64,000 bases of DNA from Schmidtea polychroa (Eukaryota). Where the stretch lies: assembly GCA_044892525.1 (NCBI GenBank), contig CM097885.1, positions 16,928,001 to 16,992,000 of the forward strand, written 5' to 3'. Each line of letters begins with the position of its first letter. The first letter of the stretch is position 1. The notes below the pieces were generated by a model. It was given only the letters and a program-made list of their open reading frames with translations, did no database searches and was not told the origin of the DNA. Position numbers and translations under genes: made by a program. Below, in pieces: positions 26 to 64,000 of the stretch.

Positions 26-1436
26 TTGCGTCCACAAAACAATAAAAAGGCTGGAACAATCATCGTTCATGTAAATAGATGTAAAAAGATACTAGCAGAA
101 TATGAATCACGTTACCCATTAAGATCAAAACTTAATAAAGATGAAGGAAACACATTCCTTAAACAAAAGTTTACAAAAAACCCTGCCCCATTGAGTTACA
201 TCAATAAAGTTTTATTGATTACAACAGTAATGATTATCAATATAATGTCAGTAAATGCAGTGAGAGTATTCCCGTTATATGCAACTAATACAGTTGTATT
301 ATTAGACAAAGTTCATATTTATTCAACATGTACTAAAATAGTTTGGGTTTATTATGCTGGAGAAGCAGAAGAAATAGAGATAAATAATCTAATAAACTAT
401 TTTGAACCCCCAATAAAATTGAACAGCACCAAAAATATTTATGTGGCTAGACAATTAACAATGAATTATGAATACCCTTGGTTAATTACGCAATTGGATT
501 CGAAAAGTAATAATACAAAACTACAAAATCTTATACGCATTAATATTTGGACAAAGAGATTACAAAATCGGGTATCAATTGAACCATTGGTAAATGGAAT
601 TGACGTATATTGGGAACCCCGTGAATCCCAACAAATAAAAATAGTTTTTCAAAATTATGCGATCGATACACTGAACAGCAGAAAACCCTTTGTAAATTAT
701 GTCAATTTAAAACAACATCACACGTATAATATTCACATTCATTATTATGAAAAATCTCTATATGAAAATGGAACCGAAACTAACAGTCAATGGGTCAAAA
801 TCCATTCTAGTCAACACATGATACGATTAGTTAATGAAACAAACCGAGTAATCTTTCACATCTACAATCAAACGGTGAATGTTTCCCGGAAAACGGACCC
901 CAATCAAAAAGCTATTTTACATTATTACGGAAAAATTCAATTAATATTAAATGAAAAAAATAAATCTCAAATATTGACTTTTCGTCAACGTTCACCAATA
1001 TCGACGTCAAAATTAGTGTTCATCAAAATTAAATATTATAGACGATCTCTATATTCAAATCTGTGGCAATTGACTTTAGTCGAAAAGACATTCGTGCAAA
1101 TTCCAATTGCCAATTTGCAGCATGAATATCGAAATGTTCCAGATCAATCAAATCAAATTCCAAGCTCTGTCAAAGGAGCCGTCATTTCTAACATTAATGC
1201 ATCAATTAACAATAACGAAACCATATCATCATTAAATACTGATAATGACATTGTGTGTGTAACATTATTATCAACTAGTCTAACTATAATAATCTTTCTC
1301 ATTATTCTCATCATCATTGTGTCAATTGAATCTCGAACAATATCCAAATCTCATACGAACCAATCCGAGATTGCGAGACTTTGGATTGTCTATGAAAAAC
1401 TTTTGTGTAGTAAGATACAAATACTTTGCATGCACA
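26..1436 (+). CDS. Putative type I membrane glycoprotein (env-position ORF), in frame with a probable integrase C-terminal tail; extreme 3' end interrupted by a hAT insertion
   Basis: Hydrophobic signal-like segment VLLITTVMIINIMSVNA, many N-x-S/T sequons, FN3-like pattern (VYWEP...L....TYNI), C-terminal TM helix (LTIIIFLIILIIIV). Removing 1437-3890 gives a native end LCMHI*. Confidence 0.55.
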
Positions 1437-1715
1437 CAGTGCTCGAAGTGGAACAAAATATGTGCCGGGATAGGCATGCTGTGGCACCCGGGATTCCAGG
1501 CTTTTATGCAGAAATTTTCAGTTGGGTGTGTTGCAAAACTTTGGGGGGGTGTCCAACAAATTTTATATATAGACACATTATATATAGAGGGGGTCGCAGT
1601 ATAAATAACTCAACAAACAACTTGCTGGTTTAACTAAAATAAATAAGAGAATATACCTACCTATCCATTACTGCTGCTTGGGAAATTCTTAATTGAATAG
1701 AGAATAGAGGATAAA

Positions 1716-3687
<1,972 letters not shown>

Positions 3688-4142
3688 ATATATATATATA
3701 TATATATACATATATGGATGTACTATGTGTGACCTTAATTGCAGTATTTGTGTGCCTATAAAATGAAATAAGTACCGGGATAAACCTATAGATTATATGA
3801 AATGAAGTGCCGGGATGCAATTCCGCCTACATAATCAATGCCGGGATAATATCCCGGCTATCCCGCCTCACTTCGAGCACTGCATGCACATTTGATAAAG
3901 TAGCAATAGTAATACAGTACTAATATTTTATGAATGGAATCATAATTTTATTTATTTATTTTATTTTTATGTGAATCTGCACTTTTCAATACGAAATGAA
4001 AGCATTAATTTGATTGGTTAGCACTAAGTAAGAAAATGAAAGGTTAAGAAAATTTTGATAAGGGTATAAAAGGCGGGTTTAAACTCATTAAACTTAATTA
4101 ATTTAAAAATAAAACAAATATCAACACCCAAATAAATCGGTA

Positions 4143-4175
<33 letters not shown>

Positions 4176-4963
4176 TATATAGCTAGTAGCTGGGACAGTA
4201 TCCTTCGGATACTTTATCTCAGCCCTAGTTTTAAAAGTAAATTAAAATTCAAACGTTAAATTATAACTATTTTTAGCAAAAATGGAACAAGTACAATGGG
4301 CAAGATCCACCTACGACAGTTACTTCAAGATGCAGAAAAATCATGCCAGCCAACAATTATACGAAATCAATGAAAATTTACAAATTCCAAATTATTTGCG
4401 GATAGATGACAGAAGAATGAAGATACGAATGTTTACAATAAGGAGAAATTCAGAATTGAAATTGAGTTGTCTCGGAAGGAAGAATATCACATACACGTGA
4501 TCAGAGGTACAGTGGAAGTGCTGAAGAACGATAATACAATATGGTGGCAACTCCGAAAATTCACATCGTGGAAGCTGCAGAAGGACTTCATGTGGAGAAC
4601 ACTACGAGCAGCGAATGAGGAGACAACGATGGTGGTGGAAATCAGAACTGTGAATGAAGCGGATGAGGTACCACAAATGCATCTAATTGAAGGAGAAGAT
4701 CCAATGTTATTGAAAATTTCAAAGGAAATGTTGAAAAAGAAAATGTCGTTTCTTAGAAAAGAAATGGATCTAGAAGAAATCCGCAATAGAATATTGTTCA
4801 TTGATGCTGAATATGGCACATCAGAGCAAGGAAAAATGGTCCCTTTAGCAATAGCAATTATGAATTATTATGGGAAAGTAGTAAAAGATGTATACCTCAC
4901 TCCAAGAGGAAAAATCCGACATTTCAATTCAAGGATCCATGGAATTACAGAAGTGGCCAGCAG

Positions 4964-7900
4964 TAGGGTGGAGCTTATTTTTGAACTTTCAAAATATTAC
5001 CTTCTTACCCTCCAATTCTGTTCCTATATATGAAAGAAAAATTCAGGCAAAATATGAACACAATTGAACAATATTTAGGGGTAGCTCAAGGACAGAGAAG
5101 TTTCTGATACTCTTAAGCAGCGGCCGCCCATTTATTTACGGTACCTTACTATAGTAACTGAGAACTAAGTAAATTGAGACTTTCTCAGACTCTGATAATC
5201 ATACAACATTTCAATCCTATTTTTACAATATACAATTAACACAAATTCTTCATAGTCCAGGCATGATCAGACTTGTTTAGTATGTTTACTGTGTGGACTG
5301 GCTATTGCAGGAGTTTGACAAATGTGTTTATAAATTTAAATTGTAAACAGTTGATAACACTACTATTAAAGTGAGCATTAAATTGCTGGTAGGCCACTGA
5401 AGTGAAGCAAGCCTTCCTGAATCTATAGCTGCTGGTAAGTTAGTTGAATGTTATTTGAATATTGAATATTATTTTCAATGTTTAAGTGTGAATAGTAATT
5501 AAATGAAGATATAGATTAGTTAGATAAGTAAATGTGAATTTTGTAATACAATTATTCAAATTAACATATCAATCCATGATTCCAAAGTCAATGCTATTTT
5601 TATAATATTCATTTCAGATTCATTTCTGTAAGAAAATGTCATCAGTTGCAAAAGCAACACGATCTCAAACTGAGTTGTATCTTCTTGGCGATTCCGTGAC
5701 TCAGTTACGTGGCAGCAAGCTGCCATCTCTACGTATGGCTCTTGGACTCTTCCTACATCACCATCTGGAACTGAAAGAGACAATAAGACAATCATCGGCT
5801 GTTACCATTACAGAAGTATCGAAGTTTTGGCAGAAAGCGAGGATCCCGATGAGAGATCATCAAAACTGCCAAACCAAGGTTGAGCATCCATTTGAAGAAT
5901 GGCGTCTTCTGAAAAAGAACAAGGCACGATTATCAGCAACTCAACTAACGAGAGAATCAGCTTTTAGTTCCAAGCTCGAGGATCTCTTTGATCTTGCTCA
6001 TGCTGATGCACTGACCAGCCCCTCGGTACTACAGGAAGATAAAAATTTCTTGTTAGCCCAGAGAGAAAAAGGAAGAAGGGGGTCGATGACTGGTGCAGAT
6101 GAAAAACTTGCTGCTAAGGAGAAAAGATCATTTGAACGAGATGAGCAAATGCTTTCGAGGCGACAGCGAATGGAGCAAGTGAAGCAGTTAGCAGCTTCTA
6201 CCGCTGAACTGATATCGTCATCTTCTGAAACCAGCTTAGATGGTGGAAACATGAAAAGTGGAGAAAATCTGAGTGATGATGCTGCAGGAGGCAGCACATT
6301 TCGGACGCCAAAAAGAAAGAGGGGGCGAAAAACTGTTATTACTCCAGAACTTGCAGTAGCTTTAGATAGAACTAAAGTGTCAGATCGCAAGGCTGTTTTC
6401 GTTATTGCAGAAACTGCTAAAAGCCTGGGACAGAACATCGACGAACTTGCTCTAAACAGATACTCGATTCGACGACTTAGGGTAGAACATCGAGTTCAGA
6501 GAGCTGCCAACATAAAAGCAAAGTTCCAGGATAATGTACCACTTGTAGTTCATTGGGACGGCAAACTGATTCCTGATCTGATTGGAAAGGAGAAGGTTGA
6601 GCGACTGCCGGTTTTGGTTTCTGGAAAAGGAGTATCTCAGCTACTTACAGTTGCTAAGCTTCCATCTGGAACAGGCGAAGCTCAGGCTGCTGCTGTATAT
6701 GAAGCCATCAAAGACTGGGGCATAGCCAAGAGTATCCGAGCTATGTGTTTTGACACTACTAGCTCAAACACTGGTCGGATTGCTGGTGCTTGTGTGACTT
6801 TTGTATGTGACCTTTACATTTGTGACCTTTGTATGTGAGTCATACATGGTTTGCATATGTATTGCAGATGTATTGCAGATGTATTGCAAATTAGTTAATT
6901 AAAACGTGTACTAATTAGTGTGATATTAAAAATATTATACTAATACATGTAACATAAAAATACTATAACAACATAAAAATAGTGTACTATCACTACTAGC
7001 TCAAACACTGGTCGGATTGCTGGTGCTTGTGTACTGTTTGAGCAGAAGCTTCAGAAGGAGTTGTTATCACTGGCTTGTAGGCACCACATTATGGAACTGA
7101 TAATTGGGGCAGTTTTCCAGGTCTGCATGGGAGCCTCATCCTCCCCAGAAGTTGCACTCTTCAAACGCTTTCAAGAGTTCTGGAGATTTATAGATACGGC
7201 TAAGTATGAAGCAGGCACTACAGCTGATGACGTAGCAAGTTTACTGGAGGATATAAAGCAAGACACCGTCGATTATGCCAACAAGTATCTTGAACAGAGT
7301 CAGCCGAGAGATGACTATAAAGAATTCTTGGAACTTGTTATTGTCTTCCTCGGTGCTGCTCCTCCCAGAGGTGTACGGTTCGTGGCACCTGGTGCAATGC
7401 ACCATGCTCGTTGGATGTCCAAGGTGATATACAGCCTAAAAATTTGGATGTTCAAAGCGCAGTTCAAGCTGACTACTGCAGAAGAGCGAGGGTTGCGTGA
7501 TGTTTGTGTATTTGCAGTACGAGTGTACCTGAAAGCTTGGATATCTGCACCTCAAGCAGCAGGTGCTCCATTCAGTGACTTGCTGCTGCTGAAGTCGCTG
7601 CTCGAGTACTCATCAATACATGCAGCCATTTCAAAGGCAACATCTCGCAAGTTTGCAAATCATTTGTGGTACTTATCTGAGAAACTGGTAAGCTTGGCTT
7701 TTTTCGACAGTCGGGTCAGTTCGTCAACCAAACGACTGATGGTGAGTGCCATGCAAAATGATGAAAACCAGGATTCTGATCATTGCAAACGTATCACAGT
7801 TGCTCTTGGTTCATTCAAAGAGAAAAACTTGGAAGATTTTGTCACAGCTAAATCAATGATTCTGCTTCAACAGCTTGAACTGCCAGATGGATTTCTTGCA

Positions 7901-8442
7901 GTTGACCCAGACTTGTGGGGAGACAGAGATGATTACAAACAAGCTGTAGAAACAGTTACATCTCTAAAAGTTGTAAATGACCATGCTGAGCGTGGAGTGG
8001 CCCTCATTCAGGAATACAGTGGATTAATCACCCGTGATGAAACACAACTACAATTCTTGCTGCAAGTTGTCCAGGACCATCGCAAAATGTATCCCGACAG
8101 CAGGAAAAAGACTCTGTCCGCCATCTCTGGGTTTACATAATAACAGTTAATTTCAAGTTTGCTGGACATTTACAGATTGTTTGTGTCAGAAGCTAAAGAA
8201 ACATTTCACTATTAATGTCTATGTGTGTAACACTGAAGTTTGCAAAAAAATAAAATAGAATCAGAATTTGTTGAATTTACAAAAATTTTATCATATTTCA
8301 GGCACTTGAGCTACCTCTAAACATAAAAATTTATTGCTTAAACTTTTTATACAGTGTTTCTATACCATAAGGAACAGATTAGGGGGGTAAGACTTTCAAA
8401 AATTATTTTTTTATTTTTTTTTATTTTTTAAGCTCCACCCTA
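4964..8442 (+). mobile_element. Full-length hATm-like DNA transposon
   Basis: TIR TAGGGTGGAGCTTA / TAAGCTCCACCCTA; 8-bp TSD GCCAGCAG at 4956-4963 and 8443-8450. Confidence 0.92.
5636..8140 (+). pseudogene. DDE transposase (hATm-like) interrupted by a 195-bp insertion plus a 42-bp duplication
   Basis: Motifs VHWDGK, CFDTTSSNTG, ACRHH, HARW, VVNDHAERGV across ORFs 5636..6838 and 7061..8140. Confidence 0.85.
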
Positions 8443-49715: not shown

Positions 49716-50781
49716 TATTATTATTATTATTATAGCTTTTAGATGTGGAGAAAATTTAATTATTCAAAGCATAGAAAATAATAAACATTTAACATTTAAA
49801 AATTATAAGAAATATAAGTAAATTAAATTCCATAATATTATTAAATTCTATAGTGTAATAAATATCAAAACTAACACTTGACATTTTCGCAGAAAATGCG
49901 ACAGTAAATCAATACTTTTGGAAGAATTTCCCTAGTCCATTAGTGTGGATTTTCCAATTTTGTATTTTAAAGACTGTATTAAGCCTATTAAGTCCGCATA
50001 TTCACATAATTCAAGAGATTTGATGTAATTAAAGAAACAATATAAAAGTAAACAAAAAACTCAAAAAAATTATTCGACTTTTGATTTTTCTTATAATGCA
50101 TCAAAATAACTGAAATACTAAGACAATAAAGTGATATAATGAATAAATGTTTGATCATTAAAAGACCACTCAAACAACTGTTTTACGATATATTTTGGCA
50201 GGGTCACTGTTATCATCAGATAAGAAAGAAAAACTATAGATGCAATAGATATTCAAACAAATTATTTGCCTAATTTAATTACCCACAAATAAAATATCAT
50301 TTATATCATATGAAAAAAGTCTGTAGAAATATCGTGTGCCTTACAAATTTTTTGATCTAGTCTTACAAACAACTGTATTGCGTATTTCGTCTATGACAAG
50401 CAGAACTTTGGTTTATATTGATTTTGTTATAAACCAACCTTTTGTTGGGCTGAGTCGAAAACTTAATTGTTCAAAAGTAGGAAAATAAGAAAGTAGGACG
50501 TTAAAGAAAATAAAAATAAAATAAGCAAAATTAAGAATAAAATAGAATAAGATATAAGGAAAAAACAATAATTAGGAAATAAGGATTAAAACAATAAATA
50601 AAAATAAGAAAAATTAAAATAGAACAATAAATTGACGAATAAATGATGTAAAATTTAATAAATAATAAGGAAATTAAGGAAATAAATAGAAAATATATTA
50701 AAAATAAAGGAAATAAGGAAAAATAACCAAAAAACAGGAAAAAGTAAATTAAATTGAAAAAATAAGCGGTACTCAATTCTG

Positions 50782-50868
50782 ATTGGTCCGCATAAATGAA
50801 AAATTATTATATAAGCAGGCACCAAAATCATAAAAATCAGTGTTAATTCAAAAACTTCATAGGTAAGT
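50782..50868 (+). promoter_or_regulatory. Pol II promoter and splice donor in element A
   Basis: ATTGG 50782, TATATAA 50808, TCAGT 50837, AG|GTAAGT 50863; CCAAT, TATA and donor conserved in element B (54998, 55024, 55080). Confidence 0.65.
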
Positions 50869-51301
50869 AAATTTTAAATATCATGCAGTGTTAATTCAAA
50901 AACTTCATAGGTAACGATCCAGAGACAGCCGCGACTCAAAATCAATTCAACGTTACATTTGCAATAGAAATCGACACCCGAAGAGTTACAGAATCCGAAA
51001 TCAGCAGACTATTTTGTTTGAAAACCGAACATTATATTTTCGACTCAGCCTAATTCAATAGTAAGGAGATTTTCTTTATGGTATTTATTTTAGAAGTTAA
51101 TCGTACTTATGCATATTTGATGAATAATTAAAATCTTAATTTAAAGCAGTTTTCCTTTTCATTTGATCCCCCGTAATGATTTTAATAAAGTAAATGATTT
51201 AAATGTCTAAAAGTATTTACTAGTAACAAATGAATCATTGAGTAATTTTTATGATTAGTTTTTATGAATTATCATTTTTCTGTGTTTAACTTAATGAGGA
51301 A

Positions 51302-51440
51302 CGTGGAGTTGAGATACTCCATGTCATGGTGTGAGGTGCCTTCAGGAGCTCAGCCGGTGGACATGGAGTTTTTCAATCACGCAGCTAGATTGGGCCGAAA
51401 TGTGAAGGCTTCTTCACGGGTCCAATCGCTGAAGGTGACT
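51302..51440 (+). ncRNA. Conserved structured RNA element 1 (copy A)
   Basis: Compensatory changes versus 55524-55660; strand inferred from G-U-compatible changes. Confidence 0.7.
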
Positions 51441-52812
51441 TAAAAAATATAGAAGAATGGAAACGAAGGAGAGTAGTGACATCTAATTAAATGAGATAGT
51501 CGTAGTAGTAGTGATCCACAGTGACTGAGCGAGTCTAAAATCTTCACATCTGCGATAGTTCTGTAGCTCTCGTGTTTTGGCAGTCTATTATCATCATCAG
51601 CTTTAGATTCCAGACAGTGTAATTTCGCTAATAGGGCAAGTATCATCTATTAACCAATTACTTTGATTTCGAAATAGCCACTCCCACTCAATTTCAACAA
51701 TGAATCCAATTTAATAGTACTTAGCCTGACAGTAAGACAGTAGAATATAAGATCATCGAAAATTGAAATTGAAAAATAAGTCAATACACGTGAAACATCT
51801 TTTATTTAAGTACAAAGGGAAAACAAATTTTCGAAATACCTGTATATGAGCCAATGTGTAAAACATTTTCTTCATTTAACTCCCAAAACAGTCGCCATCA
51901 ACCAAGTAAGATAAGTAAAGACACCCAGAATGGTTTAATGAAACTTCCTCGAATGCGATATATCCAATAATAGCGACGAGAGAGAATTTACACTTGAATT
52001 TAGACTAGTCGAGTGTAATCTAACACCAGTAAACAAATCCAGAATGCTATTCGTATTAAAATTCAGTAGAGCCACTATATTCGCCTGCGCGCACACACAA
52101 GTATTATGAGTCCAGTAGCAAATCCATATGGGATATCCATCAGCGATAATACAGTAAGTTATCAATCATACTTGCGTGAGAAAATTTCCATACGTCACCC
52201 CGTTAGGTTTTTCCTGTGATTTGAATCAGCAGTAGGTAAATTCGCATTGAGCAATTACCCTGAGAGACTCCACCCAGCACGCAGCATTCAGTTTCCAACT
52301 ATAAGATAAAATCATCAGCCAGAGAGAAATTCACGCGGATTACTGATAACCGAAAGCGTGCAGTTGTATAATTTAAGTCCAAAGTTTGGAACTTCTAAAT
52401 TTAATCTGTATAACTAACGATTAACTAAACCCGCGGAATCTACCGAATTTTCATATTAGATAATTATCTTTTGTAAAGTAGTTAGTAATTTGATTTTGAG
52501 CTCTTGAATGTGATTTAACATTTTTAGGTAAAATTTAACTATTACTCATTTCACTTAATAGGTAGAACTTCCATTTTTTTTTGTATTACCTTCCTTTGAC
52601 AAAGTTATATTGTCGGTTGATATCTTTTAGTAAATAATTAATCTAAAGGGAATAAAGATCGATCTTCTAGGGAAAAGATCCTCTTGTCAGCCGACCCGGT
52701 TCCCTTTCTTGTCAGAATATCTGGGACATTCAACGAATAATGTGTCGGAACAATGATCTTATAAAATTAGTTTATCTCGTTTAGATTTATCTCTTCTTTA
52801 TAGCCATCAGAT

Positions 52813-53560
52813 ATGCTACCAAACGCCAGACCGGCACTCAAACCCTGTTTATCTTGCTCAGATAAGAATGTAGTGATCAAAGACTTACAAGCCCAGATAG
52901 GCCGTTATAAGAGAAAAATAGATGAGTTGGAGGGCACCTGGTTTAGCCCCACTCAAATGAAGGAAATCCAGAAGAGATTATATCGAAGTGAACATTGCCG
53001 TGACGCTCTAATCTCCGAGAGCCGGTCACAAAGAAGCTTAATAAAGGAGCAGTCCGAGGCCCTGCACAAGGTGTACCTGCAGGCGGCCACCACTAGAAAA
53101 ATCGTAACTATCCCTATTCGCGAAGCCGATGAGCTTTTTCCGGCGCACCATGATACTTCTGCCAAATGGCCGTCTTCTTCCAAGAAATCTTGCCGACAGT
53201 GTGTAGAAACGGAACTCACCAAAAGACCCAGATCTCATCATCACGGGAACGAGCAGAGCACAAAGTGAAAGCACACCTACTGATACTGTGCCACAGAGGG
53301 ATCAATCAACGTCGAAACCGAAGCGTAAGCAGTTATCGCGGGCAGAGCGTAAGAGACGACAGCGCGAACGAGCAAACATCCAGCAAAGCACCACAGTGAT
53401 GGAACCCCCAACTCCCCGAAACGTCAACCCAGCGGTGGTAGATCTAACTACCGGGATCTCCGCACGGATTATCTCGGCTGCTGGCGTAGTATGGGAGGAA
53501 TATGCCTCCGAATTTTTCGACATCGACGAATTATTACGGGATACCGAGTGGGAAAAATGA
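52813..53560 (+). pseudogene. Element-encoded protein of about 245 aa (CxxC, coiled coil, Arg-rich motif, acidic tail); one frameshift near 53220
   Basis: Homologous to 57133-57881 with many synonymous differences; splice acceptor 9 nt before the ATG in both copies. Confidence 0.8.
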
Positions 53561-53823
53561 GTAACTCCAGCAGAAAGCTCAGTGACTATCACCTCTATTA
53601 TTAGCATCATATGTGATTCTCTGTCATACCATCCATCTGTACATATGGATCTTCTGTTGTTTTGTGTTTTGAGAATGAAATACATTTATTCCTGTTCCAT
53701 TTATTTATTTTCGTTAGTGAGGGTTAGGCATAAAATTATATACGGATTGTTTGAAGTTTGATGAGTGTCAGCCAATTTGCATTCGATCTACCGGTAATGA
53801 GAGATTTGGATAATACGAAACGA

Positions 53824-53967
53824 CGTAAGACCTTCTATCGGCCGTCTAGTGTGGGAAGTCGAGACCTCAGTAAGGAGTAGTTTTAAGGCAGAAGCTCACC
53901 TGCTTACTGGCGTCTCGCCGGCATAGTGCAGTACCAACGTGAAGCAGTTCACAGGCACTATGTTGGA
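53824..53967 (+). ncRNA. Conserved structured RNA element 2 (copy A)
   Basis: Compensatory and wobble changes versus 58168-58311. Confidence 0.7.
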
Positions 53968-55523
53968 ATGCGAGTTATGCGGGGTCCTACTCAGTGTTGG
54001 AAAGAGGAGAGGATTTTTGGTAGAGTGGGCAATCAACCCTTAGACTAGCCACAAATGAAATAGCCAACCGAGTAAGCCACCCCAGCACTTTTATATATGA
54101 CAAAAATATATTCTTATGCGGCTGGGAAAAACATAAAATAATAAACTGAAAAAAATAATAATAGATCCGTATTTTGTACACAAAAGTTACATTAGACTAT
54201 AAGAAAATTTAAATCGTGTGTTAGAAATAATTCAAGAGAAAATGTTGTCTTTAAAGGGCCAGGAGAGTTGAAGCACTTACTCTTGGAATAAAACACAGGA
54301 CATATTTTTTTAAAGGTTCTTAAAAATGGTGTTTTAATTTTATGAAGTGAAACAATTTACATTGCATTTATTGAGAAATCAGTAGTCATTTTTTAATAAA
54401 TACAATGTCAATTGAAAAGAAATCAGAGGTGAAAATCGAAAGAAGTTTTTACGAAACAATTTAGTTCAAGCAAATTTGAAAAGGTTGAAAATAGATTCTC
54501 ACAACATTTGTCAAAATTGGTATTCGGTTGCATGACTAATGATGATAAATTCAAGTCGATAATCATATTAAAAAACGATTCTGAAGGACAATTTTATAAC
54601 AACAATTGTAGAAAAGACATATCCTAAAGGAATTTAGGTTTATTGTATTTTTAATATAATTTAATAGAAAAAAATGAATTTATGCTACTGTTGGGCTGAG
54701 TCGAAAACATAGATTGGAGATTAGGACAAACAAGATGTTAAATAAAATAAAAATAAAGCAAACAAATTTAAAAATAAATTAGAATCAAAATACAAAAGAA
54801 ACAATAATTAAAAAATAAGAGTTAAAACAAAGAATAAAAAATAAGAAAATTAAGATAAGAAAAATAAAATAACGTAAAATTCAGTAAATAATGAGGAATT
54901 AAAGAAATAAACAAAAAATATAATAAAAATAAGAAGAAATAACCAAAAAACAGAAAAAGTAAATTAAATTAGAAAAACTAAGCGGTACTCAATTCTGATT
55001 GGTCCGCACACATGAAAAATTAATATATAAGTAAGCACCAAAATCATTAAAATCATCGTTAATTCAAAAAATTCTATAGGTAAGCAAATTTCGAAAGTAT
55101 CAACCACCGTTAATTCAAAAAATTCTATAGGTAAATCCAGAAACCGCAGCGACTCACAATCAACCGAAATTAGCCAAAGCATAATTAGTAATAGGAATCA
55201 ACATTCAAGGAACCATCAGGATTTGAAATCGAACAGACTATCTTCAAAGACGAACAATTCATTTTCGAGTTAGCCCTCAAACCGATAACGATAGTAAGGA
55301 GATCTTTTATTTTTGAAAAGTTAATAGTAATCATGGATATTTGTTAAATAATTAAAATTTTGGTTTAATGCGATTTTTTCTTCATTTGATCCCTTGTAAT
55401 AATTTTAACTAGGTTAATGATTTAAATGGCTAAATGTAATTACTAACAATAAATGAGTTATTTCAAAGTTTTTATGATTTGTTTTATGAGCTGATATCTT
55501 ATGATTTTAATTCTTATGAGAAA

Positions 55524-55660
55524 CGTGGTGTTGAGACATTTCATGTCATGGTGTGAGGGGCCTTCGGGAGCTCAGCCGGTGGACATGAAGCTTTTCAATC
55601 ACGCAGTTGATTCGGGCCGTAATGTGGGGGCTTCCCCACGGGTCCGTCACTGAAGGTGAC
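55524..55660 (+). ncRNA. Conserved structured RNA element 1 (copy B)
   Basis: See copy A. Confidence 0.7.
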
Positions 55661-57132
55661 CTAAACTCAGTTAGAATAGCAGCATATAGGGTGCATAATA
55701 GATTCTAAATCAAAAGAAAAGTAAGATTTACGATTTCACAGTGATTGAGGGAGTTACCATCTTTGTACCTACAATGACTCTACCACATTAAGCATCATTC
55801 TTCGAGAAATTCATGCTATCACCATCTGTAAATCGGAATCTCTAATGTTACATTAATAATTCGATTAACACTCATCTCTAACGAAATTATCCAACGTTGA
55901 GCTCTCCTTTTATCCTTCGGAAAATGAACCGATTCGAATTTTCACCTTTACATCTTGATGATCATATGATAGAATTCAATAACAACATTTACGTAAAAAT
56001 GGAAAAAATAATACTATATGTATATCAATATTTTATTTAAGTACATTCATAAATTAATTTCCGACTACCTGTGTAAACGTTCTCTATGTGATCCATTCCG
56101 AATGACCATAGCTGAAATGAAATTGATAGACATCTAGAGAGTTTAGAAATTCCATCGTTAAGTATATCCAGCTCTAGAGAAATTACGACTTGTACTAACA
56201 AATTCCAACATTGCAAGTTAGATGAGAACTGACAGACGATGAATACGGCACCTAAAATATTCTCTAATACCACATGTGAAGTCAAGTAGAAATTCCACCG
56301 AATAGCACACGTGCATGTATATATTGTAACTGCGATTAGCGATATCCATATGTGAGTATGCGCGAGAAATAGCATAATCAATGAGCAACCATTCACAGTA
56401 GGGAATTTCACCATGTGTCACACCCGATAGAATTTTTCATCTTTGTGAATAGTAACGGGTGAGCGTATTAGATAACAGCTACCATGAGGTGCGACACTCA
56501 GGTTGTTGATTCTCAGATTTTTGTTTTGGATAAAAATCGTTTGTGTCGTTATCGAGATAAATTGAATAATCAATAGACGATTACCGAGGTATGAAAATCC
56601 TTAAAGTCCACTTATTAGAAAATTGTAAATTAAGTGTTATAAACGACAATAGAAATTTTAATTAATTATGATAGATAATAATCGAAATTTTAAACCAAAT
56701 GCTGTAAATAATAATTAAACTTAGACAGATTTACCCATATAACTCCTTAGGCATTCACGTATGAACATCATCAAGTGGGAAAAGGGAAAGTTTGGGGGAA
56801 GTAACTAGCGCTGTATATTTTAATTTTTGATCTAAAACATGATTTAGCAATTTCAAGAGAGATTAAGGAGTTAATAAATTCACTATTGTGGAATTTTCAT
56901 ACTTAATTTGTATTCGTCAAGACAATGATATAGGCGATTAATTAATATTTTGTAAATAAGGTACAAAGTGATAGCGATCAACCGTCTGGGGGGCGGAATT
57001 TTCCTCATCTGCTTGTCCTGTTTTCTTCCCTTGCCGAATATCCGACAGTGAATAAACAACTGCATCCGATCAACGATTTTGTAAATGTAGTATATTCTGG
57101 TTATCATAGTTTCTTCTTTACAGCTATCCAAC

Positions 57133-57881
57133 ATGCTACCGAATGCCAAACCTGTACTACGCCCTTGCTTCTCCTGTTCTGACAAAAATTCTATTATCAA
57201 GGATTTGCAGTCCCAGATCGGTCGATACAAAAGGAAAATCGACGAACTGGAAGGCATATGGTTCAGCCCAGTGCAAATGAAAGAGGTACAGAAGAAGTTG
57301 TACCGCAGTGAACATTGTCGTGACGCTCTAATCTCTGAGAGCCGTTCCCAACGGAGTCTAATAAAAGAGCAATCGGAAGCTCTGCACAAAGTGTACCTGC
57401 AGGCGACGACTACTCGAAAGATCGTCAGTATCCCCATCCATGAAGCGGACAACATCTTCCCAGTGCATCACGATACCTCTTCCAAGTCATCGTCTCCCTT
57501 CAAGAAGTCCTGTCGAGAGTGTGTAGAGACCGAGCTCTCACCTAAGCACCCGGACATCATCTTCACCGGAACCAGTAAGGCGCCACCCACCATTGCATCT
57601 ACATCTGCAGCAACCCAGAATAGTCAGACGGCATCGAAACCTAAGCGACGGCAACTATCGAGGGCCGAACGCAAAAAAAACAGCGAGAACGAGCGACCGC
57701 CAAACAGCACGAACAATCGGCGGGCAACCCGATTAACGTCAACAATTCCCCTTCAGTGATCGATCTGACAACCGGGATCCCAGGGCGAATCATCTCCGCT
57801 GCTGGCGTAACCTGGGAAGAAAATGCCTTAGAATTTTTCAATTTGGACGAATTGTTAGCCGACACCGAGTGGGAAAAATGA
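57133..57881 (+). pseudogene. Element-encoded protein, copy B; frameshift in the A-run 57673-57680
   Basis: Second frame ends VIDLTTGIPGRIISAAG...EFFNLDELLADTEWEK*, matching copy A. Confidence 0.8.
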
Positions 57882-58167
57882 GAATCCACGGTGGAGTGCT
57901 CTCAGCGATCGCAAATTTTCGGACTACGTTATCAATGTTTTCTTTCTTTTTCCTTTTCTCATTGAAGTACATTTGTGGCGTATAAATTATCTGTGTTTGG
58001 TGTCATAAAATTGAAATAAACCATTTTTCCGTTTTTATATATTTTCCTGTGCGAGGATGTTCGGTATAGACTGTTTGTGAATATAGGTGAAAGCTTTCAA
58101 GGTTCAATGAGCGTTAACCAATTGCATCTAATACAGAGATAGTGAGGGTATGAATAATATGAATAGG

Positions 58168-58311
58168 CGTAAGTCCTTCTATCGGCAGTCAAGAGAAGGA
58201 AGTCGAGGCCTCAGTAAGGAGTAGTCCTAAGGCAGGGGCTCACCTGCTTACTGGCGTCTCGCCGGCATGGTACATTTCCAACGTGAAGCAATTCACGGGT
58301 ACTATGTTGGA
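58168..58311 (+). ncRNA. Conserved structured RNA element 2 (copy B)
   Basis: See copy A. Confidence 0.7.
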
Positions 58312-60401
58312 GTATAGGTTGTGCAGGGTTCTGCTCGGAGTTGACAAAGTGATAGCTAACATATATGAAATGAACAATCATCTCTTAGACGAAAAGTTAA
58401 AATAGTTGGAGTCAACCGAGTAGCGCCCCAGCACTACCTATGATTTAAATATCAAAAATTTGAACATTCAAACTACAGAGGATTAATAATATTGAATAAA
58501 TTATTTCTAACTGTATTTTATCTTACTACACAAAGTAAATAAGAGGGGGGTTGGATCCATGCGCTAGACGATGGAACACGCGAATAGGTGGTGGGTGAGG
58601 TAACCAACATAGAGCACCCAATACAAGCGGCAGAACTCTTGGCGCTTTCGGTACCAGTCAGATAGTGAGCTAGGATGAGATTAAAAGTTTCAGCTGATGG
58701 CAAACTCTGGATCCTGTGTCGAAACTCGTTCCGAGTATATATGATACATTACCCATGTCTGCCACTGTGTCAGTGTGCGTTGGGCACTACTTTAGCCGAT
58801 AATGCCTTATAATGAATAAATTGCATGTATTGAATTAAGACCCAATTGATGACTCGCTAAAACTGACAGGTCAAATCGAACTCCTCTCACCAATAATTTA
58901 GCAATAACTAATTGACATATTGGTGCACTGGTTGCACCAGTTATAGGTAATACAGAATCGAGATTTCTCTGTTTAATGTGTACATTAACTCCTCAAATAT
59001 GATATAAATTATTTGGTTGGGTATCAAGATTTGTATAAAATACCAAAAGTTAGAACAGAATGGAAAATAGTTCAGCAATTCAAAACAGTATTACCGAACG
59101 AAAGTCCCCATTAACAAACTTTACGGATTCGGATTACGGATTTTTCGCTTACATTACTTATTTTTTACATATGAATTATATATTTTAAGTTTTATTGCTC
59201 AATAAAATTGCATATGTATATGTATATCAGAACTTTACAATTTTTAACATTTTTCAGTTTTAAACTAAATATAGGTTTTTATTGCATCTTATACGATTTA
59301 AAGATATTGCCTAAAAAATCAAAGGATCAGCCGTGTTCTTAGACCTTATTTGGTTGCGTGCAATTCAAGTGATGTGAAAACGAAAGGTTTACCGAAAAAG
59401 ATGGAAAATAAGCTTTCTAATATGATCAACGTTTTGCAGGAAGGTTTACAAAATTAAAGTATTTCAATTTGTGTTATAAATAGAACAAAATCAAAGTAGA
59501 AAATAATTCAATCGAGACTATTCAATTCGAAAATATTACTAGCCCTAAACAAAAATCATTAAGACGTGCGCAACTTTATCAGAATATAATACACAGCGGT
59601 AGGCCTAGACCACATACTAACCACATGGCAACAGCAGTTAAGGATGCAAATGCAAAACTATTTACTCATCTAATATCTATATTTGAAATGCCTGATCTTA
59701 AAAAATGGCCATTAATATTAAGACGCTTTGGATCGATGGTGAAAGACAGCTGAATAATTTGACCAAACACAAATATTTAACGTTCCAATTAATGATTTTA
59801 GAATTTTTATTGATAAAAATAGAGCTACCAACTCGTGTTTATGTTTACTTACAAAATGTCCTAAATAATTAAATACAGAAAATACCACAAGCAAAAAAAT
59901 AAAACCAAACTCCTTTAAATAAATTATTAAATTTTTTTGTCTTTTTTTTATGGGTTAGTAAAGCAAAACCGAATTTTTCCCATACAAAAATATGTTCCAA
60001 AAATGTATAGATATTCCGCTTTACCGAGTATTAAGTTTATCTCAACAAGTATAAAAAGAGACAATAAATTCTTATTTTAGTGAAAACAGTACATCAATGA
60101 ATTTGCTGTGATTTTATGTCTTAGATTTATACATTGCAGAAAAAATTGATAATTATAGCGACTTATGGGGATTTTTATTCCAATAAATTATTTCGTCAAC
60201 ATGGGAATTATGAATATTGAACCTCCACAATCAAGTAAAAGAACAAAAAGAATAATCAAAACTATTGGTGTTATGGAAGTTGAGCGTGGCTTCAGTGCAA
60301 TGGGAAATTTATCGAAACTAGTCTTCATAAGAATTTAGGGGAAACCTGAAACTGCTTTTAATCTTCTAGCTTATATAAGAACATGTTTGAGGAAGCATAA
60401 T

Positions 60402-63400
60402 GATTTAAATGATATACTTTCTAAAAAAACAAATGAAGGAATTAAAATTAAAATGGATATACCAACTTCAAAATGTGTAATGACTTTGAAGAATATAAAA
60501 ATTAGTTTTTTAGATAATTGTTTCTTTCACACAGTTTTAGGATTTAAACCTATGGATATAACAATAAAAGAAGATAAAATAATAACATCAGAACATATTA
60601 TAAAAATAATAAATACAAACACAATAAATATTCATTGCGATTGTATAACAGGTTCTTATAATAATGGTAAACAAACAAATGTTTTATATTCCTTTCCCTC
60701 AAACACAGTTCCTATGGGATATAAAATAGTTGAAAGAATGAATCCTCCAAATTATTTACCTTTATGTAGAAAATATATAATGGATATTAATTTTAAAATT
60801 CTTAATCAAGAAGGAGAATTGATTGATTTTAATGGAGAAGAGATTTCAATGTATTTACATTTGAAACAGGTTTGAAGATTCATTTTAAATTATTAATAAA
60901 TGAGTTCTTATATTCCATGTAATAGAGGTGGTGGAACAATAAAAACAGGGTTTAATACAGAAGAAATATTAACTTTAACAGAAAATAAATATATTAATGA
61001 AAGAGGTGATTCAATGAAGGGTGATTTAATTTTAAATGGACACAAGATAAAAGAATTATCTTTTCCAACTGATGAAGCTGATGCAGTTAATAAGAAATAT
61101 GTAGATGGTGTTAAAAAATATACTGATTTAACAACAACAAGAATTGAAAGTTCATTAACAACAAAAATTGATTCAATGGAATCAAAGCTTAATAATATCG
61201 AACAACGATTTAATGATAAATTTGACAAGTTACAAAGTCTGTTAACTGAACAAGTTGTAAAGTTAAATACTGCTATATTAAATTCTAAAGATAAACAAAT
61301 TATGAATACTAAATTTAATGCAATATATAATATAATAAATGAGATGATTACATCATTTAATAAAAGAATTTCAAATTTAGAGTCTCATGGAACACACATT
61401 AACACCACACATAGTATTAGAAAAAGAGCTGCTGAATTAGAACAGAATAAAACATTATTACCCCATACATATAAACATTTTATAGAACCAAGTTTAATAA
61501 CAACAAACAGTAAAGAATGGGGTGTTTTTATGGTTGTAAAAATTATTGATCCTTATTTCTTTTTATTTGATGATGATAATGAAAGAATGAAATGGTTTGT
61601 GAAATGTGATTATAATAGTAAGCTTGAAAAGGGTGATGTTATAATGACTAGTTATGATTTACCACACGGAGATTGGTATGTTAATACTCATTCACATGGA
61701 CTACATAAAGTTAAAAGTAAGAATATTCATTTTTCTAGTTCACTTGTACAATATATAGATTTAATATTTTATGAAAAAAAGGTTGATGTTGATGAAGTTC
61801 GTAAAGCATTGAGAGAATTGTATAAAGACATCCTCTCAACAAGATTTTCTTTTGATATCCGAGTATTGGTGCCAGGTGGTGCTCAGAAGAATAAAGTCTT
61901 ATTTTTTTAATTATTAAAATGGAAGAAGTAAGAGAAGAAAAAATTTACCCAGAATTGAGATCATCAGGATATTATTCTTCCAAGGCCTCGGCTCCCACAG
62001 AACTTGAAATTATGAGAGTAAAAGAATTTAAATCAGAAACCTTACATTTACAAGATTTATTAAAGCATTATAAAAAAATTAAAAATAGATGGAATAAAGG
62101 GAATACAGTTTTAAAAGTTATAGGTTATTCTTTAGGATTTGCATCTGCAATATTAACAGTTATTTTACCCATAACTTTACCAGTTTTAACACTTGCGCCA
62201 GTAATACTTGGAAGTATTTCTGTAGCTGATGGTTTCTTAACTGAAATAGTTTCATTATCTTATACTTCTAAAAAGAAAAGTTTATATAGAGAAGTTTGTT
62301 TATCAATAGAATTAGGAATCTCTAAATTATTTTTATTTCAATTAAAAGCTTTGGAAGATGGAATCCTGACAGACGAAGAAATAATGAAATCAAATCAAAT
62401 AATACAAGATATAAAGAATGAGGTTATAAGATTAAAAAGGGAGGGCATGGTGGCTAATGTTATAAGTAATAAAAAAACATCTCGAGAAAAATGGTTAAAG
62501 AATTCTTACTTATAAAATGGGTGTATTTTTAAAAAAGTAGATCAGGTTGCTATAGTTGCTTAAATTAATTGTCGACATTTTATTATTAAAAAATTAAATA
62601 TCGTTGGTTTCAGTTATGGTTGAAAGCCAACCTATGAATCATTAATTTATGATCTTTAAATTCTTTATCACTTAGACCTTTCATATATTCAGGATCAGTA
62701 TTAAAATATTTAAGTTCTAAACATATAGGATTAAAAACTTGAGAATATAAAGGTTTCTCGATTTCTCTCTCGGGATAAATAATTTCAACATTATAAATAT
62801 CAAGATCAGTAATCTTTGTATCATATAACTTATTCAACTTTTCTAGATTTTTTATTATAGGGATTAAATTATTTCCAATAGGTAGAGTTGTCTTTAAATC
62901 ACTTAGTATGAATCTCTTATCATCATAATTTGATAATGATACTTTTTGAGATTCTATCAAGTGAATATCATGGTTTTCACTTTTAAGTTGATGTATTTCA
63001 TCAATTTTATCTTTATGATTTGGATTCAATGTATCTATATAATCTTGATGAGAAAGATTCTTTGCAACCACTCTCTGTATTCCTTTACATCTGTTATCCT
63101 TTAAATTAGTAATATTTTTTATAATTTCAAAAATGTTATTTTCTTGATTTTTAGTTTCCATCATTTTATAGTGTTAAAATTCTAATTCTTAGACCAGTCG
63201 TAATTGATTTATAATTATTTCTGCAGTAATGCTTTTTAACATTAATTTATGTGATTTAAAGTCTTCTGGTGTTAGTCCTTGGATATATTCAGGATCAGTA
63301 TTAAAATATTTAAGTTCTATAGGTTTTATATTTTGAACTTGATTATATAAAGGTTTAGGAATTAATATTTCAGGATATTGGATTTCTACTTTAGCAAGTT

Positions 63401-64000
63401 GAAGGTCTGTAATCTCTAGGTTATAAATTTCATTTATTTTATCAAGATTTTTTATTATAGGGATTAAATCATTTCCAATAGGTAATGTTGTCTTCAAGTC
63501 AGAAAGTATAAATCTTTTATCATCATAATTTGTTATAGCAATCTTGTTACACTCTTCAAGATATATATTATGTTTCTCTGATTTAAGATGATGGGTTTTA
63601 GCAATTTTATTTTTATAATTTATATTTAATGAATCTTTATACTCTTGATGTGTGAAGGTTTTTGACACTGATTTTTGAATTCCTTTACTTTTATTTTCTT
63701 TATAGCTTTTCGGGTTTTCAGGGAATGAAGGATATTCAAATGTGTGATCTATTTCAACAGATCCTTCTCCCTCCCCTATTATAAATTTTATTGTATGCTC
63801 TTTCATAATTGGTTTGTCTTTCATTTCAAGAGAATATTGTTTAGGTCTAATAAACACTCCTCCACTTATTGGAGTATTTGGTTTTTCATCTTTAAAAGTA
63901 AATAATTCTCCAGAGTTGTTTATTAATTTATTTAAGGTTTCGTTTTCACTTATTTCCTTTTTTAAATCTTTACTATGACCTTTTAAAAACATACTATCAG
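60402..64000. mobile_element. 5'-truncated second copy of Maverick 1 (penton 3' part, fibre-like, membrane protein, PolB-C paralogue, pPolB 3' end)
   Basis: Matches 24170-27768 at a constant offset of 36232; translated ORFs appear identical; runs off the window. Confidence 0.97.

Follow-up and report, generated by a model that had tools for sequence, protein, structure and literature searches.

A conserved twin-hairpin RNA in the LTRs of Burro-type gypsy elements of Schmidtea polychroa, possibly a Rev/RRE-like response element

The Rev-like systems of complex retroviruses include HIV-1 Rev/RRE, HTLV-1 Rex/RxRE and HERV-K Rec/RcRE, as outlined in the consulted passages of PMC10746203. From the Gypsy/Ty3 element Cer1 of C. 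elegans the protein CERV is known, which is made from a spliced mRNA and needed for the export of the unspliced RNA; the passages on CERV contain neither the term RRE nor cis-acting and name no RNA element (PMC10309623). The planarian Burro/GYPSM1 elements are gypsy-like, about 30 kb long and have LTRs of several kb (excerpts of PMC6431247).

The DNA analysed here, referred to as the window, is a stretch of 64,000 nucleotides from S. polychroa. The elements to which it led us agree with Burro/GYPSM1 in the size of about 30 kb and in the multi-kb LTRs, and, within the excerpts of PMC6431247, also in the gag zinc knuckles, the fusion glycoprotein between gag and pol, PR-RT-RH-IN, ankyrin repeats and a MATH ORF. 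What goes beyond that description is an RNA structure and an ORF inside the LTR as well as a gag-only partner family. No RNA structure in Burro LTRs is described in the literature searched, outside of which lies the original Burro genome paper, and the searched portion of the main text of PMC13524379 gave no hits for Burro, splic or RNA structure. Relative to these parts of the literature the twin-hairpin RNA in a Burro LTR is new, while Rev-like systems and CERV were already known.

Two solo LTRs and their predicted transcript signals

The window contains two solo LTRs, A and B, of about 3.7 kb each, which belong to a Burro-type giant gypsy element. Their features are as follows.

50443..54087, plus strand: solo LTR A with TG...CA ends; 4-bp target duplication at 50439-50442 and 54088-54091
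50780..50813, plus strand: predicted promoter, an inverted CCAAT box and a TATA box, with a presumed start site
50863..50910, plus strand: predicted mini-intron of 48 nt, beginning at the first donor; the last nucleotides of exon 1 recur at its 3' end
51302..51431, with a tail to 51435, plus strand: RNA module of two hairpins, copy A, in solo LTR A
52813..53561, plus strand: LTR ORF of A (coiled coil, Arg/Lys-rich helix, acidic tail); broken, with a stop after 151 codons
53822..53995, plus strand: conserved 3' box downstream of the predicted poly(A) region; identity 0.72 among eight diverged LTRs
54689..58433, plus strand: solo LTR B with TG...CA ends; 4-bp target duplication at 54685-54688 and 58434-58437
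55524..55656, plus strand: module copy B, in solo LTR B
57133..57882, plus strand: LTR ORF of B; out of frame past the basic motif, with a stop after 208 codons

TG...CA direct repeats, a target duplication and a tRNA primer site behind the 5' copy, the hallmarks of a Burro-type gypsy, were all found. Elsewhere in the genome the same LTRs occur in pairs 24-28 kb apart and enclose gag, a fusion glycoprotein gene, PR-RT-RH-IN, ankyrin repeats and a RING/MATH ORF, all on the strand that corresponds to the plus strand of the window, so that these elements (on C36 and C1) measure about 30 kb. The primer-binding site behind the 5' LTR matches the host tRNA-Pro, and the module lies about 2.7 kb upstream of it. 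A contig of run X5 skips 54674-58433, as expected of the empty site of LTR B, which suggests that the insertion of LTR B is polymorphic.

Several further observations concern the elements and their surroundings. Part of the 3' box is common to the LTRs of a second family, F2. No purine-rich tract was found before the 3' LTR at five loci (L067, L042, L045, L059 and L196); a conserved GC-rich motif common to F1 and F2 directly precedes the 3' LTR instead. Both solo LTRs recur beyond the window, in a tandem duplication whose period is 36,232 bases. Polinton/Maverick-like genes occupy 18290-39724 and 60339-64000 of the window, and the set comprises a double jelly-roll capsid protein, a protein-primed polymerase, an A32 ATPase, an integrase and an adenovirus-type protease. 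Genes for tRNA-Pro stand in a tandem array with a 475-base period at C1:130.90-130.95 Mb (L080), the pattern of which has 2,192 matches in the genome.

LTR families were defined from 60 LTRs located before primer sites, which were taken from the first 100 of 1,077 listed, with three tandem repeats skipped. They comprise 11 LTRs of F1, 19 of F2, eight of F3 and 22 of F4. The module described here, M1, is present in all 11 F1 LTRs.

Within F1 a CCAAT-like box is found in 66 of 69 aligned rows and a donor-like site in 49 of 69, the TATA box lying about 500 nt and the predicted donor about 440 nt upstream of the module. The repeat of the exon-1 end in the mini-intron matches in at least 17 of 20 nt in 45 of the 49 donor-bearing rows. 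This repeat (window 50838-50910) is exact within each subfamily though the tail itself varies between subfamilies, and it also occurs in F3. About ten rows lack exactly the mini-intron, which could be due to splicing or to deletion between the repeats. An acceptor-like pyrimidine tract with YAG ends 0-10 nt before the start codon in all 18 LTR ORFs inspected, and in copy A it ends at 52803. Behind the ORF, AATAAA follows after 111-136 nt in eight of nine F1 LTRs and in neither of two F3 LTRs. The order of the predicted sites is thus CCAAT/TATA, donor, module, acceptor, arginine-rich ORF and poly(A) signal. Because promoter, donor, acceptor and poly(A) signals are ordered in this way around module and ORF, the LTR resembles a complete transcription unit with the module inside its long intron. 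The intronic position follows from the splice signals; contigs from one DNA run and from four runs guessed to be RNA contain no GT..AG joint at the predicted sites, which is evidence in neither direction.

Fold, covariation and the loop-tail match

Within a 1-kb repeat (50443-51444 versus 54689-55665), whose copies are 77% identical overall and 86% identical in the element, conservation is highest in the two module copies. Among eight diverged F1 LTRs the module of about 130 nt has an identity of 0.90, compared with 0.52 in the 300 nt before it, 0.31 in the 300 nt after it and 0.68 in the LTR ORF. The sharp drop behind the module agrees with the poorly alignable downstream sequence noted in the preliminary description. 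A search of the genome for the element gave 1,342 and 1,758 first-look candidates, and a 15-nt core of the module has 1,534 matches, compared with two for the control. The parts of copy A are:

51302..51381, plus strand: hairpin 1, a long irregular stem with purine-rich inner loops; the apical loop is UUCA in copy A and UUCG in most copies
51382..51431, plus strand: hairpin 2, with a basal helix, a 5x1 inner loop and a GCUU loop; retained in the distant homologue M3
51429..51435, plus strand: tail matching the apical loop; its first three bases pair at the base of hairpin 2

All of the substitutions between A and B that had been quoted earlier as compensatory are present in the sequence. In B the stem 51317-51325/51360-51368 differs by a double change and by a single one, and in the stem 51402-51407/51412-51417 two A-U pairs are replaced by G-C pairs through double changes. 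The plus strand of copy A folds at -64.5 kcal/mol (z -6.0; none of 200 shuffles as good) and that of copy B at -55.9 kcal/mol with a weak z of -2.0 (5 of 200 shuffles), and both minus strands fold more poorly than the plus strands.

The covariation that the two copies had suggested is borne out in a deeper alignment of 82 distinct copies, drawn from 123 found in the loci fetched. In the two nested hairpins 97.7% of the cells pair, whereas slid controls pair at 33-50%. Double changes occur in 13 of the 47 nested pairs, 11 of them among the 32 pairs of hairpin 1. The nested double-change cells number 199 against 61 +/- 12 in shuffles, none of 500 being as high; since the shuffles take no account of kinship and the structure had been derived from the same sequences, the comparison differs from an R-scape test. 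In the middle stem the second family shows U-A to A-U, C-G to G-C and G-C to A-U changes, after a gap was moved in 11 rows. Ranked by corrected mutual information, eight well-paired nested pairs are among the 28 highest of the 10,440 column pairs. The bases of the inner loops are nearly invariant, and the apical loop is a UUCG closed by C-G in 67 of the 82 rows, the UUCA of copy A being found in two. These data support a real RNA fold that is under selection.

The preliminary description had inferred a functional fold, namely a response element, a ribozyme or a packaging/dimerisation signal, with a possible pseudoknot, and had not assigned it to a giant retroelement's LTR. The selected fold stands, and both the response element and the packaging/dimerisation signal are kept as candidates. 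A self-cleaving ribozyme with a pseudoknot, for which the conserved unpaired bases and the loop-tail match might speak, is very unlikely. An Rfam 15 scan of the window gave no match at gathering score, and around the element the best covariance-model hit has an E value of 3 and is not a ribozyme. The module consists of two plain hairpins that lack a multiway junction, the supposed pseudoknot does not covary, and a cut at this place would sever the genomic RNA between the cap and the primer site.

The pseudoknot itself was not confirmed. The loop 51339-51345 is indeed complementary to 51429-51435 in copy A. However, this perfect match is a rare variant found in two of the 82 rows, and the loop-tail pairing shows a single double-change cell, a value reached by 194 of 500 shuffles. 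By mutual information its seven pairs rank from 929 to 8327 of 10,440, that is, without covariation. Nested pairs that covary (39-49 and 91-135 in alignment A3) take up loop and tail alike, the match is absent from all 14 rows of the homologous module M3, and the distance of about 30 pairs between the apical loop and the tail would be a steric obstacle in cis. Pairing in cis was dropped for want of covariation, for its competition with two covarying helices and for its absence from M3. The loop-tail match could still pair two genomic RNAs in trans. A run of at least eight pairs is found in 52 of the 82 rows, and the cost of opening of 6-7 kcal/mol, set against a duplex of -12, makes it energetically feasible; by chance a match of this kind arises in 53 and 141 of 2,000 shuffles (2.7-7%). 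For a dimerisation signal the feasible run is a favourable point, while the missing covariation and the absence from M3 count against it.

We also considered a second binding site for the tRNA-Pro primer. Ty3 has such a bipartite primer site, the host tRNA-Pro matches the primer-binding site, and the 3' strand of hairpin 1 contains a 10-nt word of that site in 55 of the 82 rows (window 51345-51357). However, the word is lacking in the other 27 rows, among them entire subfamilies, L123/L150/L157 and 11 F2 rows, that have the fold. This reading, to which we attach a very low probability, was dropped since the word is not retained in whole subfamilies.

The arginine-rich LTR protein and a possible response element

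The LTR ORF is broken in A and B and intact in other copies, where it encodes a protein of about 250 residues. It is under purifying selection, with pN 0.18 against pS 0.76 and a pN of 0.075 in the basic motif (seven ORFs). A structure model with a mean pLDDT of 62 predicts long helices over residues 13-98 and another one, at 177-190, that spans the basic motif. The basic motif is kept in F1, F3 and F4 and in P0001, a single distant relative that retains the coil and the basic stretch. Searches with the protein returned no Pfam family, no hit at E 0.001, a best Atlas value of 0.86 and no fold match, and compared with proteins of the Rev/Rex/Rec type neither a sequence nor a fold match was obtained.

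The best explanation of the module, although still a tentative one, is that of a Rev/RRE-like response element which marks intron-retaining RNA and is read by the arginine-rich LTR protein. That the module marks RNA retaining the LTR intron is the most likely interpretation of the predicted signals. Transcription would start from the LTR TATA box, and a splice joining the first donor to the acceptor that precedes the ORF would take out the module, leaving a short regulator mRNA whose end lies at the poly(A) signal that follows the ORF. The RNA that retains the module would be the genomic and Gag-Pol RNA. The LTR protein would bind hairpin 1 via its basic helix, multimerise through its coiled coil and help the RNA to keep its intron, to run past the 5' poly(A) site and to be exported. 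The gag-only F2 elements, which need their Gag to be translated, would borrow the LTR protein in trans.

A conserved structured RNA and a regulator with an arginine-rich motif, both characteristic of Rev/RRE systems, are present. The module is RRE-like in layout, with the binding being predicted, and is not filed as a member of the RRE class because no conserved leucine-rich export signal was found. The C-terminal four-residue pattern occurs in one of nine F1 proteins; this was a scan for export-signal patterns, and atypical signals may escape it. As far as the consulted passages of PMC10746203 go, the likeness to Rev, Rex and Rec extends to a structured RNA in intron-retaining transcripts, a small arginine-rich protein from an mRNA predicted to be spliced, and an oligomerisation-type region in the protein. 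In contrast to these retroviral systems the host of the module is a gypsy element, and a twin hairpin of 130 nt takes the place of the branched RRE of 351 nt (PMC10746203). RNA and gene both lie in the LTR here, and the conserved leucine-rich export signal is missing. With CERV the LTR protein has in common the origin from a Gypsy/Ty3 element and, by prediction, from a spliced mRNA, and a cysteine motif is taken as a further common trait; the coiled coil and basic helix set the LTR protein apart from CERV as described (passages of PMC10309623).

Two other readings start from the protein. Its basic motif may be a nuclear localisation signal only. An acidic phi-x-x-phi-phi motif, which we take to resemble an activation domain, ends 13 of 14 LTR proteins, and together with the basic motif this would suit a Tat/TAR-like transcription switch, with the basic helix as the part that contacts the hairpin and the acidic tail as the recruiter of activators. 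However, a TAR needs a promoter-proximal place, and the F1 module starts about 500 nt behind the TATA box, so we regard such a switch as improbable. It is likewise unlikely, if somewhat less so, that the module is a constitutive element read by host factors, either for CTE-like export or for silencing of splicing or of the 5' poly(A) site, with the LTR protein being a separate transcription activator. The acidic tail and the missing conserved export signal would agree with that, but the near invariance of the inner-loop bases points the other way. The evidence from the LTR families bears on the same question.

LTR families and exchange of the module

F3 and F4 contain related LTR ORFs, and each of the autonomous families has one structured island between the promoter and the LTR ORF (z -4 to -7). 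The islands of F1, F3 and F4 look alike by eye, and in the model search the E values of 2.5-7.6 are not significant; weak E values mean little in this search because an unrelated palindrome scored E 0.002. F4 LTRs are about 5 kb long, with two ORFs and a three-hairpin island (L132, oriented 4548 and 5258, L120 and L125), and one of the ORFs ends in a short basic motif that we take to resemble an AT-hook.

The LTR of F2 is different, being 1.6 kb long and free of an ORF. Both F2 elements examined encode just a Gag of 877 residues and contain no pol, env or LTR ORF. F2 and F1 LTRs have in common only the module (138 nt, 82%) and another 25 nt. At the module site M1 is found in ten of the 19 sampled F2 LTRs, an unrelated long hairpin, M2, in eight, and M3, a distant homologue of M1 (model match E 1.8e-5), in one, while the flanks of M1- and M2-bearing LTRs can be aligned. 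Of 30 module loci sampled by position, 15 belong to F1 and 15 to F2, and all sampled loci of M2 (30 of 30) and M3 (20 of 20) are in F2 LTRs; no donor family for M2 or M3 was found among these loci. In F1 and F2 the gag reading frame extends without a stop for 115-117 codons ahead of the first ATG (L202:2897-6481 and L196:4350-6980, minus strand), and F2 has an acceptor-like site close upstream of gag, so that the start of Gag may be a different codon or may depend on splicing.

Because M1 and M2 each need at least three changes on well-supported branches of both flank trees (26 and 27 of 33 rows), the cassette appears to have been swapped in F2 several times; recombination between copies of F2 would look the same. 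A common 14-nt word in M2 and one F4 subfamily (reached in 1 of 200 shuffles, with three families compared) was the one trace of a capture of M2 from F4, a candidate that was dropped after negative profile and covariance model searches.

The exchange is relevant for the main competing explanation, a packaging/dimerisation signal read by the Gag of an autonomous helper, which accounts for the data nearly as well and is only somewhat less probable. A packaging signal would be just as compatible with the location of the module 3' of the first donor, owing to which the intron-retaining RNA alone would hold it, and with its retention by a family that lacks pol and has to travel in particles shared with a helper, and twin hairpins with conserved tetraloops are also in keeping with it. 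On the other hand, retroviral packaging signals usually occupy the leader, and the distance of about 2.7 kb to the primer-binding site places the module outside that usual position. The F2 Gag is 93% identical between M1 and M2 carriers, and 94% in the zinc-knuckle region, which disfavours the F2 Gag itself as the reader because the two modules are unrelated. Measured against the portions of PMC5035971 on Psi and dimerisation signals, the module resembles these in being made of structured hairpins close to the genomic RNA's 5' end, in a position tied to the first donor, and differs in lying inside the LTR, far upstream of the primer site, and in being swapped with no change of Gag.

For an element read by host factors the interchangeability of the unrelated M1 and M2 in one LTR background would be favourable, as would the failure to find a helper that owns M2, either at the 30 sampled M2 loci or by the F4 model search. 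However, in every autonomous family a sequence-specific island peculiar to that family accompanies the family's version of the basic protein. The Rev/RRE-like reading can be extended to a switch inside the LTR with one hairpin-protein pair per family, in which a gag-only satellite changes its helper by a cassette swap, M1 having come from F1 and M2 perhaps matching F4; we consider this wider scheme rather unlikely.

The module of 130 nt and the basic peptide of 20 residues are amenable to tests in the tube. The natural swap of M1 and M2 in one LTR and Gag background amounts to an experiment on specificity, for export or for packaging. With more than 1,500 copies of its core the module could also influence those host transcripts that read through solo LTRs. 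If the Rev/RRE-like explanation is true, the regulated export of unspliced RNA would extend beyond retroviruses, with a defined target RNA in a gypsy element.
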